From: Escherichia coli
GTDB taxonomy: Bacteria > Pseudomonadota > Gammaproteobacteria > Enterobacterales > Enterobacteriaceae
Strand: one strand, 5' to 3'
Assembly: GCF_044324785.1 (NCBI RefSeq)
Contig: NZ_CP172127.1
Length of the DNA stretch: 64,000 bases
Of the stretch, positions 6,958 to 12,634 are shown in pieces. A program made the position numbers and the translations under genes. Within the stretch, counting starts at the first letter, position 1. Each line of letters starts with the position of its first letter. The notes beneath the pieces were generated by a model. The model ran no database searches. It was not told the origin of the DNA and saw only the letters and a program-made list of their open reading frames with translations.

Positions 6958-7382
6958 CAATGAGTGATGCAATAAACGGTGCTGAGGATATCATGCTCGG
7001 TTTGGGTGATTTCATTTTTGCTATATCAACAGTAGCGTACAACAAACTGCAACGTAGTGACGCCTGGCGCTGGGCTCAGCAAACACGATTCGGGAAAAAC
7101 GACGCATTGCAGATAACCGGACGACCGAACCCCACAATCACGATCGATGGGAAAATAAACGCGTTATTCCTTGATGGGTGCGGCATTGGCTTGTTAACAG
7201 ATTTGCGGGCACTGGGGAACTCGGGAGAACCCCAGCAACTGGTGCTGGGGACCGGGGAGGTGAAGGGGTACTGGGTTATCAGGGAGTTAACAGAAACGCA
7301 AAACAGTTTTCTGAAAGGAGGGACCCCAAAATCGCAGGACTTTTCACTCACGCTCGAATATTATGGAGCTTCGCTAGATTAA
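6954..7382 (+). CDS. Tail protein gpU-like
   Basis: 142 aa, overlaps the tape-measure stop (ATGA); position. Confidence 0.6.
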   Translation: MTMSDAINGAEDIMLGLGDFIFAISTVAYNKLQRSDAWRWAQQTRFGKNDALQITGRPNPTITIDGKINALFLDGCGIGLLTDLRALGNSGEPQQLVLGTGEVKGYWVIRELTETQNSFLKGGTPKSQDFSLTLEYYGASLD

Positions 7383-7544
7383 TACAAAATCAAGCGCTAC
7401 CAGAGCACTTAACAAGTATAAAAATAATAAAAAAAACTACGAGCATAAATGTAAAACAACCTGATGGTATTTTTTTTTGACGCCGAAATACTAATACCTC
7501 TCCGACTACTAAAATTAATTCTCATTATGAAATCCTTTTAATTA

Positions 7545-7769
7545 ATGGGGCCCCAAATGATTACATACACTACACGGGACGGTGACCGTCTCGATCAGAT
7601 CTGCCTTGCTGTCTACGGGAGAACAGCAAAAACGACAGAAACCGTGTTATATCAGGTTTTAAATTACGGCGTAACGGATATGTGTGCCGTGTTTCGTGCA
7701 GGAGAAAAAATTGTTTTACCAGAAATCGACCCCGAACCGGCTAAAAAAGAAACGCAATTATGGGATTGA
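7545..7769 (+). CDS. Tail protein X-like (LysM-like); a start at 7557 (MITYT...) is also possible
   Basis: Sequence ...DRLDQICLAVYGRT...ETVLYQVLNYGV...AGEKIVLPEI... resembles P2 gpX as I remember it. Confidence 0.65.
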   Translation: MGPQMITYTTRDGDRLDQICLAVYGRTAKTTETVLYQVLNYGVTDMCAVFRAGEKIVLPEIDPEPAKKETQLWD

Positions 7770-7772
7770 TGA

Positions 7773-8816
7773 ATGAGTGATTACGTAAATACTGGCGTGG
7801 AAGCATGGAAGCCCAATTTTTATATATCTGCTGATAATGAAAACATCACGGATAAAATAAGAAAAGGTTTGATCAATATCACGCTCACAGATTATGGTGG
7901 TTCGAGTAAACAGACAGACGAATTACGCGTAGCAATCGTTTCTGAAACTCTGAAAATTCCGGCCCGCGGAGTAAAAATCAGTATTGGGCTCGGTTTCGGT
8001 AATCAGATAATTGATAAGGGTGTATACATCGTTGATGGTGCGAGCAGTGGCGGTGAACCCCGGGTAGTTGATTTCACAGCAAAAGCAGCTCCGATGAACG
8101 CATCAAAAGGCTCTCCGACAGTTCAGAGCAAAAAAACTCGCTCCTGGAGCGACGTCACTGTCAGCAATATCGTTGCAACAATAGCGAGCGATAACGGGCT
8201 AAAACCTCGCGTATCAAAGCGGTTTGCAGACAACATTATCACGCAGCTCGATCAAGTCGGCGAGTCAGATATGCACCTGATGTCGCGGCTCGCAACGAGA
8301 TTCGATGCGGTGAGTAAACCCGCGGGCGGGTACTGGATATTCCTGCCGCGCGGCGCGGGCGAATCTGTTAGCGGAGCACCGCTTCAGCACTACACGCTCA
8401 CGCGTCGTGATAACTCAAGCTGGGGTTATTCGAGAAATGGACAAAACGGTGATAGTGGCGGAGGTGGCGAAAATGCGGAGCCAACGTATTTGATCAAATA
8501 TCACGATACAGCAACGGGGCAGATCAAAGAATTGCGTACGGGCAGTGGCGGCGATCCTGTAATCGAGTGGCCGGCAGTGGAGCCGTCGCTTGATGCAGCG
8601 AAAGAAGCTGCGCCAGGACTCAAGGGCGGTGCAGCTAAAAAAGAGTTCTCCATGACTTACACGACGCCCGCGACGCTCGATTTAGTATCGCTGACTGCAG
8701 AATGCAAAGTCACAACACAAGGATTCGGGACAGAGGAGGACCGAGACTGGACAATCAATACGTTGACGCTGACGCTGGCTGAAAACGGATTCTCTGCGCG
8801 ACTGTCGCTGGAGTAA
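7773..8816 (+). CDS. Tail protein D-like
   Basis: 347 aa immediately after the X-like gene, as in R-type pyocin/phiCTX-like clusters. Confidence 0.65.
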   Translation: MSDYVNTGVEAWKPNFYISADNENITDKIRKGLINITLTDYGGSSKQTDELRVAIVSETLKIPARGVKISIGLGFGNQIIDKGVYIVDGASSGGEPRVVDFTAKAAPMNASKGSPTVQSKKTRSWSDVTVSNIVATIASDNGLKPRVSKRFADNIITQLDQVGESDMHLMSRLATRFDAVSKPAGGYWIFLPRGAGESVSGAPLQHYTLTRRDNSSWGYSRNGQNGDSGGGGENAEPTYLIKYHDTATGQIKELRTGSGGDPVIEWPAVEPSLDAAKEAAPGLKGGAAKKEFSMTYTTPATLDLVSLTAECKVTTQGFGTEEDRDWTINTLTLTLAENGFSARLSLE

Positions 8817-8821
8817 ATGAA

Positions 8822-10648
8822 ATGGCAATAATATCGGGTGTATACGCAAATGGGGTCGGCGAGCCCGTTGTCGGCGTTCAGTTAGTATTAACAGCACGGG
8901 TCACGAGTTCACGCGTAGTAATGACCACTGTTGTAGAGCAAGAAACAGGCGCGGCGGGTGAGTACAAATTTGATATGAAGCCCGGAGTTTACGTTGTCAC
9001 TGCTAGTGCGGCATATCTCGGCGTGATTAACGTTAACCCGGACAGTGTTGACGGCACGTTAAACGACTATTTGACTAATTTTAGCGCAGACGAACTGACG
9101 CCAGCTGCGTTGGCGGAGATCCAGGAACTCGTTGCCACAGCACAAGCCGCTGCCAGTGTTGCCAGCGCCGCCGCAACGGAGGCCAGGCAGAATGCCGCCG
9201 CCGCCGCTGCTGCTGCGCAGATTTCGACGGCAGCGGCAGGGAGCGCCAGATTTGAGAATTTTGACGAAATTATCAATGTCAATACAACAGCAATGCTGGA
9301 GCTGGAAAAACCGGAGGTGTTAGATCCGGATATTGCAATAACTATCACAGAGACGATTAATTATAACTATATTGGCCCGGTAAACGGATTTTGCGACGTT
9401 ACTAGCCCGCTTGAATATAAAATTCAAATGTACGCCTACACAACAGGCGAATATTTTAACGGCGAAACAAATTTAACAGCGGACGGGAAGTTTTCTTTTA
9501 AACGTTCCTGGGCTGGTGCAAAACAATTCAGATTGGTGCGCGTAGCAGATAGTAAATGGATCACTACGCTGGAATACCCGCTGTGTATTCGCAGTTACTG
9601 GATGCCCGCTGACGCCGATCCCGAGGTAGTCAGCGTCATGAAAGACCGTTGCTACACATATGATCAGGCGTGCGCGGCGCTGGCTCTCATGGCGCAGAAT
9701 CACGAGGCGGTAGAGCGTTATGTTACGGGTCTGTGCGCCCTGGTGGGTGAAAACGGCGGCATTAAATTTTTTGTTAACCGGCTGTCCGCACAGTCCTCCC
9801 GCGAATATTACCGCACGGGTAACGCGGCGTGGGTGTTGTACGCCCTGGCATTCTATCTGAGCAAATACCCTACCGGCAGTAACGCTGAGTTAGCGCGCGC
9901 GAAATTAAACGCCGGGCTAACCTGGCTGGACGGTCTGAAGGTTGACGCCAGCGGCGACCCGCGCCACGGCTTATACATGGGCGGCAACGGTAAATATCTG
10001 GAGGACGGATCATTTGATCCGAATTATGTTGCGACCTGGTGCGCGCTCGAGCACAACGTTGATATTTATTTTTTATTCGAACTCGTTGGACGGTTAACCG
10101 ATTTTACCGGATACGAACTGCGAGCCACCACGCTGGCTGCAAATATCGTGGAAAAATTCTGGATTGAGAGCGAGGGGCGATTCCGGCAGGGCGTGCACAT
10201 TGACGGCCCGGACAACGCCGCAGCGCTGGATCAATCGAGTTGGGGCGGGATATTCGCAGTAAAAGCCGCGCCGGAGTTGGCGGAAAAATGCCGCCGTTAT
10301 ATGGAAAGATTCCGGTTCGGCACACTGGAGAGCACCGGTTATACACCGTATCACCCGGACTACGGATACAGCGGCCATAGCCGTGGCGTGTGGACCGAGG
10401 GTACAGCGGGTGTAGCACTATTCGAACGTGCGCTAGGGAACGAGCAGAGAGCTACCGATCTGATCGCGGGATTAAAACCACTGCGTAATGAATACGGCTA
10501 TCGCGACTCATGCGACGATAAAAAATACGACACACTGCCGGACTGGCCGTCGACTACAAACACCGCTTGGGTTATTTTAACATGCAAGCCGGCGGGGTTT
10601 TGGTGCGTAGATTTCCCGGTATTGGACGTTGGTATCGTCAGGTACTGA
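8822..10648 (+). CDS. Side-tail-fiber-like protein: lambda Stf-like N-terminal domain, Ala-rich linker, and an unassigned ~400-aa C-terminal domain
   Basis: N-terminus MAIISGVYANGVGEPVVGVQLVLTARV...GEYKFDMKPGVYVV...GTLNDYL parallels the lambda Stf N-terminus. An AAAAAAAAQISTAAAG stretch follows, then a Trp/Tyr-rich globular region with no transmembrane or signal sequence. Confidence 0.6.
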   Translation: MAIISGVYANGVGEPVVGVQLVLTARVTSSRVVMTTVVEQETGAAGEYKFDMKPGVYVVTASAAYLGVINVNPDSVDGTLNDYLTNFSADELTPAALAEIQELVATAQAAASVASAAATEARQNAAAAAAAAQISTAAAGSARFENFDEIINVNTTAMLELEKPEVLDPDIAITITETINYNYIGPVNGFCDVTSPLEYKIQMYAYTTGEYFNGETNLTADGKFSFKRSWAGAKQFRLVRVADSKWITTLEYPLCIRSYWMPADADPEVVSVMKDRCYTYDQACAALALMAQNHEAVERYVTGLCALVGENGGIKFFVNRLSAQSSREYYRTGNAAWVLYALAFYLSKYPTGSNAELARAKLNAGLTWLDGLKVDASGDPRHGLYMGGNGKYLEDGSFDPNYVATWCALEHNVDIYFLFELVGRLTDFTGYELRATTLAANIVEKFWIESEGRFRQGVHIDGPDNAAALDQSSWGGIFAVKAAPELAEKCRRYMERFRFGTLESTGYTPYHPDYGYSGHSRGVWTEGTAGVALFERALGNEQRATDLIAGLKPLRNEYGYRDSCDDKKYDTLPDWPSTTNTAWVILTCKPAGFWCVDFPVLDVGIVRY

Positions 10649-10676
10649 CAATTATAATTTTTGGAGTTTTTTATAC

Positions 10677-11096
10677 ATGGTCGTTAAAAATATTCTTGCC
10701 TTTGGGATTATGTGTGCGCTTGCTGGTTGTGCAACCAAGCCAGTCTCAAACGAGCAGGCTACTCCCGTTCCAGAAAAACAGGTAATCAATAGCGCAATAC
10801 TCGAAAAAAGAGATGGGACAGGAGAGGTGATCATCAAGCGTGATTCGGGTTTCTTTGGGAGCGCGTGCTTTTCCCGTGTTTATGTTGATGGTAAAGAGGT
10901 GGCAGATTTAGGTACAGCTCAGAAAGTCGTTGTATACCCAACGATTGGTGATCATGTCTTCAGCGCGTGGCCAAAAGGAGTATGTGGTGGTGGCATGAGT
11001 GAGCAGGCGGGCAAGGTGACAACAGATCGTACTTTGATGTATCGCATAGGTTACGGTTCAAACGGTGAATATGGCATTCACCCAACTGCGTTTTAA
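10677..11096 (+). CDS. Small predicted outer-membrane lipoprotein (prophage cargo)
   Basis: GGAG about 10 nt upstream of the ATG at 10677. Signal peptide MVVKNILAFGIMCALAGC with lipobox LAGC; the residue after Cys is Ala (not an Asp inner-membrane retention signal); several Cys in the mature part. Confidence 0.55.
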   Translation: MVVKNILAFGIMCALAGCATKPVSNEQATPVPEKQVINSAILEKRDGTGEVIIKRDSGFFGSACFSRVYVDGKEVADLGTAQKVVVYPTIGDHVFSAWPKGVCGGGMSEQAGKVTTDRTLMYRIGYGSNGEYGIHPTAF

Positions 11097-11253
11097 CTGT
11101 GTTGGGTATGCGATTTTATTCGCATACCCCTTAGGGCAATTGACGATACTTCCAAATGACCATTATTTTACGTGTGGCCTCGATGTTGCGCACATGAGAG
11201 TTCTATATTCTTTCAAACAGGATTATCCCATTGATTTAATTATACTTTCGTAT

Positions 11254-11314
11254 GGTCTCGAAAACCGGAGTAGGGGCAACTCTACCGGGGGTTCAAATCC
11301 CCCTCTCTCCGCCA
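11254..11314 (+). repeat. Partial 3' copy (61 nt) of tRNA-Ser(CGA), serU-like; putative prophage attR
   Basis: GGTCTCGAAAACCGGAGTAGGGGCAACTCTACCGGGGGTTCAAATCCCCCTCTCTCCGCCA matches the anticodon-stem-to-CCA part of E. coli serU as I remember it. The upstream sequence does not match the tRNA 5' half. Confidence 0.8.
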
Positions 11315-11860
11315 CTTTATCAATGACTTATCTCCCGACTTCCCGCCTTGCTTTTCCTAAACAGAACAATCGTAGAATATTCTTGAAGGGTTAGATCGTC
11401 ACTGTTTTCTGTTCGATACTGTGACATTCAGCACTTGATTCGCTATGGATCTGACAGGAAGGTTTCGAGCGAAAATCTGCAGTTATTCAGTCGTTTTCTT
11501 ATCGCTCACCATTATTCTTTTAGACATTCATCCTATGAAACTGCCGCAAAGTTGGTGGTGGGAACTGAAGTTGCGTAGAGAAGGGGGCAATAATTGAGCC
11601 AAAAAAGGAACGCGGCCGTCAGATTAAAGCCGCGGGACAAAGTCCATAATTTCCAAGAGTTGTTGAATTTCCCAGCTTTTTTGAAAGCCTTTGTATCATA
11701 CTAACAAGTAAAAAAGGTTTAAATACCAAAATTAACCTATATTTCTGGTTAGCTTTACCATGACAGATGACTTGCTTCTGGAGACATTGGCGCTGCCAGT
11801 CTGTATTGGTGAGTTGTGTATTTATTGTTCGCCGCTTTCTCGGTTTTTTTCTACAGACAT

Positions 11861-11894
11861 AATAAAAAAGACACGTCTCAAGCATGAGCGTGTC
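11861..11894 (-). terminator. Rho-independent terminator downstream of zinT
   Basis: Hairpin GACACGTCTCA-AGCA-TGAGCGTGTC, followed on the minus strand by a T-run. Confidence 0.6.
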
Positions 11895-11983
11895 TGAGTT
11901 TGTTTTATTTATTTGTCTTGGTAAATTATTGTCGTTACTACCAGGCACTGTTCTGTTAAATAATTGAAGTCAGCGCAAAAAAA

Positions 11984-12634
11984 TCAATGAGACATCATCT
12001 CCTCGACCACTTCTTCGCTACTCAACTGATAGGGATAATACGTTGGCCAGTTTTCCATTTCATTTAATAAAGATTGCTGTGAATCATTACCCATAAAAAT
12101 GTGAAAATGAGATGATTTTCGTGGTGCAATTATATGATCGCTAAATTGAATATATTTAGGGGCTTTGCTTTCAGGATCTTTACATTCGAATAAGTAACGA
12201 ACGCCTTTCTTGCCTGATTTATAGGTGAGTATTTTGTATCCATCATAATCATATTTACAGGATGTTGTTTCATTATTTCTATGGAATTCAACAATGCCGT
12301 CCTCAATGCCAATCATCTCGATATCTGTCACATAACCTTTGCGATAATAATCTTTAATTTCAGCAAATGTTTTAGTTTTATCTGCATCCGCTTTCTTCTG
12401 AAAGACGGGGTCAAGTTTGCCACTTTGCAGTAAAGGATAAACGGATTGCCAGACTCCATCCCAGTCACTGAGCGTTCGGTTTTGTACATTGGCATCATCA
12501 AAAACACCATTAGCAGCTTTTTGTTCGACCTCTGTTAAGGGTTTGCCGTGTGAGTGATGACCATGCGAAAAGGCAGGAGCGCTAACAATAAAGACACCTA
12601 AAGCAACAGCCAGTTTATGAAGACGAATCGCCAA
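11984..12634 (-). CDS. zinT: Zinc/cadmium-binding periplasmic protein ZinT (YodA)
   Basis: 216 aa with signal peptide and His-rich HGHHSHG motif; recognised as E. coli ZinT. Confidence 0.9.

Follow-up and report, generated by a model that had tools for sequence, protein, structure and literature searches.

In the 64,000-nt stretch of Escherichia coli DNA analysed here (the window), a lipoprotein gene occupies positions 10677..11096 of the plus strand at the end of a P2-type prophage. It opens with an ATG, closes with a TAA stop (11094-11096) and encodes 139 aa, consisting of a signal peptide (residues 1-17), the lipidated Cys18 and a mature β-sandwich domain (residues 19-139) with invariant Cys64 and Cys103; the mature length is 121 aa. 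A GGAG Shine-Dalgarno sequence is located at 10663-10666, 10 nt 5' of the ATG. An alternative in-frame start, TTG at 10629, lies inside the preceding fiber gene; this overlap, together with the alignment of homologues from the query ATG (MKK.. starts), identifies 10677 as the correct start. The reading frame is no product of chance, as it matches phrog_890 (E 4e-52), retrieves 94 homologue clusters down to E 7e-82 and has a dN/dS of 0.08. The gene is real, and the original prediction, which described 10677-11096 from the sequence, is confirmed in all its factual parts.

The clear lipobox that had been claimed is present. The N-terminus reads MVVKNILAFGIMCALAG followed by CATK, forming an L-A-G-C lipobox with Cys18, and Ala19, Thr20 and Lys21 take positions +2, +3 and +4. 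Across an alignment of 39 homologues, Cys18 and Ala19 are invariant, the Gly preceding Cys18 is nearly so, and Thr20 is nearly invariant. In E. coli, Asp at +2 is the inner-membrane retention signal. As predicted, no Asp stands there, the position being held by Ala19, and from this +2 rule alone the lipoprotein is expected to be sorted to the outer membrane.

The gene sits in a compact unit of ~510 nt. Homology around it to a fiber-less ST131 prophage is confined to 10623-11132, beginning with a leader (10623..10676, plus strand) and ending just beyond a hairpin located 3' of the stop (11104..11131, plus strand). A promoter-like TTGGTA-18-TATAAT is found at 10629-10658, in the last fiber codons, with 10/12 positions matching the consensus. 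In the promoter scan, such matches are as frequent in this region as in shuffled sequence, and no sigma-70 consensus appears upstream of the HK639 or Klebsiella copies. The gene may have a promoter of its own, a claim weakened by the lack of a consistent sigma-70 site upstream of the HK639, Klebsiella and Salmonella copies. The hairpin, GGGTATGCGA-loop-TCGCATACCC with no U-run, folds at -21 kcal/mol (z -3.9) and is kept in EC958 with changed stem bases; the terminator scan does not call it, and it may be a terminator or a stabiliser.

Upstream, the genes encode P2-type myovirus tail proteins, comprising baseplate J/I-like, sheath, tube and tape measure products as well as gpU-, gpX- and gpD-like ones. 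The prophage has its own P2-type tail fiber of 374 aa (1160-2284) with a Tfa assembly chaperone (2288-2866), so the Stf-like protein of 608 aa encoded after gene D (8822..10648, plus strand) is a second, extra fiber. It combines a lambda-Stf-type PF08400 N-terminal domain (Pfam E 1e-24) with a shuffled ~430-aa C-terminal module, and its PHROG matches are phrog_13714/7032/4128. The C-terminal module has no match in Pfam or in a PDB profile search. Enterobacterial prophages carry it joined to at least five distinct types of N-terminal adaptor, and related sequences occur in phages of Microbacterium, Thermus and Coprococcus; it may be an uncharacterised enzymatic or receptor-binding module. With the fiber stop at 10648, the 28-nt gap given earlier between this gene and the lipoprotein gene is correct. 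Further upstream, the segment between the gpU-like and gpX-like genes (7381-7556) is without homology to SE11, where a minus-strand gene of 66 aa, annotated as 'superinfection immunity protein' (L019 2299-2499), takes its place. By this sequence comparison, the gpU–gpX gap looks like a second variable cargo slot in the prophage family.

Downstream, the sequence bears out the placement of the lipoprotein gene at the prophage edge, as its last gene. A 61-nt 3' fragment of a serU-type tRNA-Ser(CGA), the att repeat, lies at 11254..11314 (plus strand) and is followed by chromosomal zinT, msrQ and msrP. The fragment contains the anticodon loop with CGA, a long variable arm, the T-arm and the acceptor 3' strand, as in a class-II tRNA. 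ARAGORN finds no intact tRNA at 11254-11314 in the unmodified sequence and calls tRNA-Ser(cga) there once the 5' half is supplied; Rfam on 10500-11700 gives sub-threshold matches only, due to the tRNA fragment. The fragment and the chromosomal flank thus make the lipoprotein gene the last one before the att repeat of a prophage in a serU-type tRNA gene.

At the position equivalent to 11254-11314, EC958 carries a different tRNA-derived fragment (…GGGTTCAAGTCCCGCTCCGGGTACCA); the end of the related ST131 prophage adjoins yecA. Since the window uses a serU-type site and ST131 a site near yecA, the prophage family has at least two integration sites. The window itself contains a tRNA-Gly(GCC), tRNA-Cys(GCA) and tRNA-Leu(TAA) cluster at 61625-61927, which lies near yecA on the E. 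coli map. The flank also varies on the chromosomal side. In SE11 and JNE151685, the cytochrome b561 homologue yodB separates the att site from zinT; the window lacks it and has ~240 nt of unrelated sequence (11745-11984) in place of ~1 kb of SE11.

The lipoprotein belongs to PHROG 890 ("lipoprotein", category other). Residues 4-139 align with positions 2-136 of the 136-position profile at E 4.4e-52, and no other PHROG matches at E≤0.01; HK639 gp16, mEp390 gp17 and VaK_0031 match the same profile. A word-indexed search returns 94 clusters from E. coli, Salmonella, Citrobacter, Klebsiella, Yersinia, Xenorhabdus and metagenomes, and an exhaustive profile search extends this to 1616 clusters (50% identity) at E≤1e-3, with 900 at E≤1e-10, nearly all of them single-domain proteins of 130-145 aa. 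Within the 39-homologue alignment, Cys64 and Cys103 are invariant, and Gly-rich loops recur as KRDxGxxGSxC, CGGGMSE and (Y)GYGSNGD. On the query, Pfam reports only an 18-residue lipid-attachment motif (E 0.55), with no match to DUF2846 (PF11008) at E≤10, and NCBIfam gives no match. When the Pfam DUF2846 profile is compared with 39 family members, one matches at 1.9e-6 and five at E≤0.1, and the AFDB neighbours include proteins labelled DUF2846 or PEGA; the family is a distant relative of these at best.

The AlphaFold2 model is an eight-stranded β-sandwich with a pLDDT of 88.5. Residues 21-50, which follow the lipidated Cys, are packed onto the domain at a pLDDT of 94-96, and Cys64 and Cys103 probably form a disulfide. 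Foldseek aligns the model with AFDB 'lipoprotein' models at TM 0.8-0.9, and the structural matches in AFDB50 are only to uncharacterised lipoproteins. T6SS-immunity and lysozyme-inhibitor folds are absent among the top structural matches. BFVD holds no informative viral match for the lipoprotein, a PDB sequence-profile search yields nothing at E≤10, PADLOC matches neither the lipoprotein nor the fiber, and the literature search found no paper on the PHROG 890 lipoprotein family.

Beyond the window, tblastn recovers the lipoprotein in 63 phage records (Vibrio, Pseudomonas, Escherichia, Klebsiella and Salmonella), with 45% identity between the E. coli and Vibrio phage proteins. The 20-odd contexts examined are all prophages, phages, phage-plasmids or satellite-like elements. 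The gene is therefore phage-borne, as originally proposed: no non-mobile context is seen among those examined, and these phage and mobile-element contexts rule out a conserved chromosomal lipoprotein.

Family members occupy at least seven different slots in otherwise unrelated phages. In mEp390, Fostie, P. aeruginosa phages, phiAH14a, and Klebsiella and Citrobacter prophages, the gene is placed between K and I, just before J. Salmonella and Yersinia prophages carry it between gpT and the tape measure gene (the HK97 gp15 slot), while HK639 and one metagenomic phage have it between the tape measure and distal tail genes. In the Vibrio anguillarum H20-like phages it directly follows cI; SSU5-type phage-plasmids have it as a neighbour of the repressor and ParB genes. 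One metagenomic phage carries it in the early region, one JGI metagenome element in an integrase-AlpA-primase satellite-like setting, and the window prophage at its end, after the Stf-like fiber. Such variable slots, with no non-mobile context, point to a moron that moves independently of its neighbours.

Two of these settings have a distinct local organisation. In the Salmonella prophages (L012-L015 8001-9001), the lipoprotein gene and a gene for a 173-aa phrog_16400 protein together make up an insert of two genes that separates gpT from the tape measure gene and is closed by an intrinsic terminator. In the JGI metagenome contigs (L028 4417-4857, and L029), the lipoprotein homologue P0073 stands beside integrase, AlpA and DUF927 primase genes; the small element also includes tape-measure and tail-assembly-chaperone genes and has a satellite-like organisation.

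The Vibrio arrangement bears on expression. In VaK, a 16-nt gap without a terminator separates cI from the lipoprotein gene, and a strong bidirectional terminator directly follows, from which we infer that the lipoprotein is made in the lysogen. The placements after cI and beside repressors fit a protective function expressed in lysogens.

Selection acts on the coding sequence. The window allele differs from that of EC958 by 30 synonymous and 10 non-synonymous substitutions, for a dN/dS of 0.08. The eight amino acids that differ are all located in the signal peptide or within residues 36-41, and residues 42-139 are identical despite 11 synonymous changes. Judged from these substitutions, the comparison of the window allele with the ST131-type allele shows strong purifying selection. 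In EC958, gene D beside the lipoprotein gene is annotated as a truncated 257-aa product (L016 7790-8563). Maintenance of the lipoprotein while neighbouring phage functions decay argues for a benefit to the host. The EC958 gene D DNA is nonetheless homologous to the end of the window gene D. Three records of 19-27 kb labelled 'complete genome', vB_EcoM-569R10, -720R5 and -705R4 (L002), correspond to the ST131-type region including chromosomal yecA; since yecA is included, they look like prophage fragments rather than full phages.

Taken together, these features tentatively favour, at slightly less than even probability, a moron whose product is a disulfide-bonded β-sandwich lipoprotein of the outer membrane, expressed in the lysogen and acting in the envelope, with phage exclusion as its most likely role. 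The first part of this reading, a moron encoding a lipoprotein, can be held with considerable confidence; the exclusion function and its target are hypothesized. The mobile moron of ~510 nt (10623-11132) would bring along its ribosome-binding site, a probable promoter and the closing hairpin. After export, the precursor would receive its lipid at Cys18, and Lol, in the absence of Asp at +2, would sort it to the inner leaflet of the outer membrane. There, a compact 120-aa disulfide-bonded β-sandwich would be kept near the membrane, since the model places the stretch that follows Cys18 against the domain with high confidence. Production would take place in the lysogen and, where the gene lies in a tail operon, also late in lytic growth. 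The protein would act on a conserved envelope component instead of one variable receptor, as the 45% identity between E. coli and Vibrio phages suggests. The most likely benefit would be that incoming phages are kept out (superinfection exclusion), or that progeny do not adsorb wastefully, at an outer-membrane or periplasmic step. Conservation this high is unlike that of receptor-specific exclusion proteins, and it would fit a non-phage envelope function equally well.

That second function could be lysogenic conversion or host fitness, with the lipoprotein conferring resistance to serum or complement, to lysozyme-type or T6SS peptidoglycan hydrolases, or to bacteriocins or tailocins. Bor/Iss and TraT are envelope lipoproteins that raise serum or complement resistance, and periplasmic β-sandwich lipoproteins are typically inhibitors or immunity proteins. 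Several observations point this way: the ST131-type allele group has the gene fixed and maintained by purifying selection, beside a gene D annotated as truncated; conservation as wide as the Proteobacteria suggests that the envelope target is universal; and family members occupy lysogeny-region positions. Such a fitness factor is possible, though on the unlikely side.

The original prediction had, as a hypothesis only, paired the lipoprotein with the fiber upstream as a receptor-binding protein plus exclusion module, in which the lipoprotein would mask or jam the receptor of the 608-aa fiber, as Llp does for pb5/FhuA. The lipoprotein gene does begin only 28 nt after the fiber, and the family often adjoins host-recognition genes, for example in the K–I slot before J. 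The prophage family, however, exists in E. coli in three states. The window state holds the 608-aa fiber and the lipoprotein. The ST131-type (EC958 and others), located at a tRNA-derived site by yecA, is homologous to window 7003-8819 and 10623-11132 only, so that exactly the fiber is lacking and the lipoprotein remains, with its 54-nt leader and the hairpin. The SE11/E24377A-type, at the same serU site as the window prophage, is homologous to window 7557-9132 and 10999-11400; it carries a different fiber of 334 aa and, of the lipoprotein gene, just the final ~100 nt, a loss indicating that the phage can dispense with the lipoprotein. The window, EC958 and SE11 prophages are thus homologous through gene D and differ in fiber and lipoprotein content, as expected of a moron.

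The genome counts bear equally on the module. The lipoprotein gene is found in 434 of 5426 complete E. coli genomes (~8%), and 432 of these carry the ~90.5%-identical ST131-type allele, without the fiber. Fiber C-terminus and lipoprotein occur together in a single genome of the 5426, JNE151685, so the pairing with the upstream gene is not general. There, a J-type siphovirus prophage occupies the same att site as the P2-type myovirus prophage of the window, and the two share a block composed of fiber residues ~175-608, the lipoprotein and the att flank, at 94% identity overall and 99.5% for the lipoprotein. A block common to two such different prophages could speak for a cognate pair, and shows that fiber C-terminus and lipoprotein can move together; given the same att site, however, recombination between prophages accounts for it equally well without functional linkage. 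Fiber homologues also occur without the lipoprotein: phiSTEC1575-Stx2k, which has no such lipoprotein, carries one of 68% identity in the lambda J-lom-stf position, and the ORF after it is unrelated. The family is likewise found far from fibers, after cI, beside repressors and in early regions, and conservation is much higher in the lipoprotein than in the fibers next to it. With the ST131-type lacking the fiber, the SE11-type lacking an intact lipoprotein gene and other slots in use family-wide, an obligate module is not supported, and receptor masking for this fiber is improbable. Overall, the genomic comparisons indicate that the pairing is incidental rather than defining.

A role within the phage cycle itself, in periplasmic tail or fiber maturation, in o-spanin-like lysis or in keeping progeny off debris, is quite improbable. 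Most members lie in tail-gene clusters in late-operon orientation, and a tail-cluster position with the same orientation as the late operon makes late co-transcription likely. Tail assembly, however, is cytoplasmic, whereas this lipoprotein is exported and lipidated, and the cI-operon position in Vibrio phages argues for lysogenic expression. Nor is the gene a core gene, being absent in the sister SE11 prophages and in close relatives of the host phages. It does not lie in a lysis cassette with an i-spanin partner; with a prophage-end position by tail genes and no i-spanin-like ORF adjacent, an o-spanin is unlikely. A functionless passenger is very improbable, although the right end of the prophage is variable, gaining and losing cargo, and SE11-type prophages keep only a 3' remnant there. 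The frame is intact, dN/dS is 0.08, and 11 synonymous substitutions have left residues 42-139 unchanged; 39 diverse homologues share an invariant lipobox, Cys pair and loops, and the family runs to hundreds of clusters.

PHROG 890 is abundant and limited to temperate phages and related elements across Proteobacteria, with its function unassigned. Its placement in the Vibrio phage cI operon, and in siphovirus tail operons at the slots classic for exclusion morons, recommends it as a good candidate for a new factor in superinfection exclusion or lysogenic conversion. That its members constitute a widespread, previously unrecognised class of envelope-level defence proteins is doubtful; if true, the class would, unlike Llp or Cor, mask no single receptor but bind a conserved outer-membrane or periplasmic component shared by Proteobacteria, such as peptidoglycan, Lpp, Tol-Pal or the BAM/Lpt machinery, and would stop many phages, or tailocins or T6SS effectors, from crossing the periplasm. 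This would explain both the conservation across Vibrio, Pseudomonas and E. coli and the fixation in E. coli ST131. For experiments, the family taken together offers a good and cheap target.

HK97 gp15, an inner-membrane protein rather than a lipoprotein, is reportedly the type of an exclusion moron in the T–TMP slot, as described by Cumby et al. in 2012 (J Bacteriol). The same slot is held by the Salmonella and Yersinia members of the family studied here, and the concept is alike, an exclusion moron inside a tail operon. T5 Llp is a periplasmic lipoprotein that jams FhuA by reverse allostery and thereby causes superinfection exclusion (PMC9586334). Like the window lipoprotein, it is phage-encoded, has a lipobox and a predicted location at the inner leaflet of the outer membrane, and its gene lies by a receptor-binding gene. 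The two differ in size (~61 aa for mature Llp versus 121 aa) and fold, and in range: Llp is specific for FhuA, whereas the present family is conserved across Vibrio, Pseudomonas and Enterobacterales phages. BLASTP gives no alignment between them, and hhalign aligns signal-peptide residues 3-21 only. The Llp mode of action offers a reasonable analogy for how an outer-membrane lipoprotein of the inner leaflet could block entry.

Cor of phi80/N15/HK022/mEp167 is likewise a small phage lipoprotein encoded among tail-fiber genes, and it excludes FhuA-dependent phages. It is 78 aa long, and its mature form of roughly 60 aa differs from the 121-aa β-sandwich of the query. BLASTP between the two reaches E 0.019 over 16 residues, and hhalign aligns the signal peptide only, at a probability of 20%. 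N15 Cor matches phrog_1119. The comparison with the Llp and Cor families suggested in the original prediction is thus negative: the signal peptide alone aligns, and Cor falls in phrog_1119, the query in phrog_890.

The mEpimmI lipoproteins Lpp021 and Lpp010 exclude OmpA- and LamB-dependent phages (PMC11893012). They too are lipoproteins of temperate coliphages with genes by J or tail-fiber genes, and they illustrate that lipoproteins other than Cor can exclude phages. HK639-like phages carry a homologue of the query, and the mEpimmI proteins were considered as a direct precedent; at 72 and 82 aa and with no alignment, they were rejected as such, and their families are phrog_4281 and phrog_12984. 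By sequence comparison, membership of the query in the Llp, Cor or mEpimmI lipoprotein families is excluded.

The closest likeness is to the PHROG 890 members themselves, such as SSU5_122, with which the query shares its length, lipobox, Cys pair, conserved loops and phage-cargo context. No substantive difference separates it from the family, and its slot after an Stf-like fiber in a P2-type prophage is one of many. In conclusion, the window copy is an ordinary member of a known but uncharacterised phage lipoprotein family.
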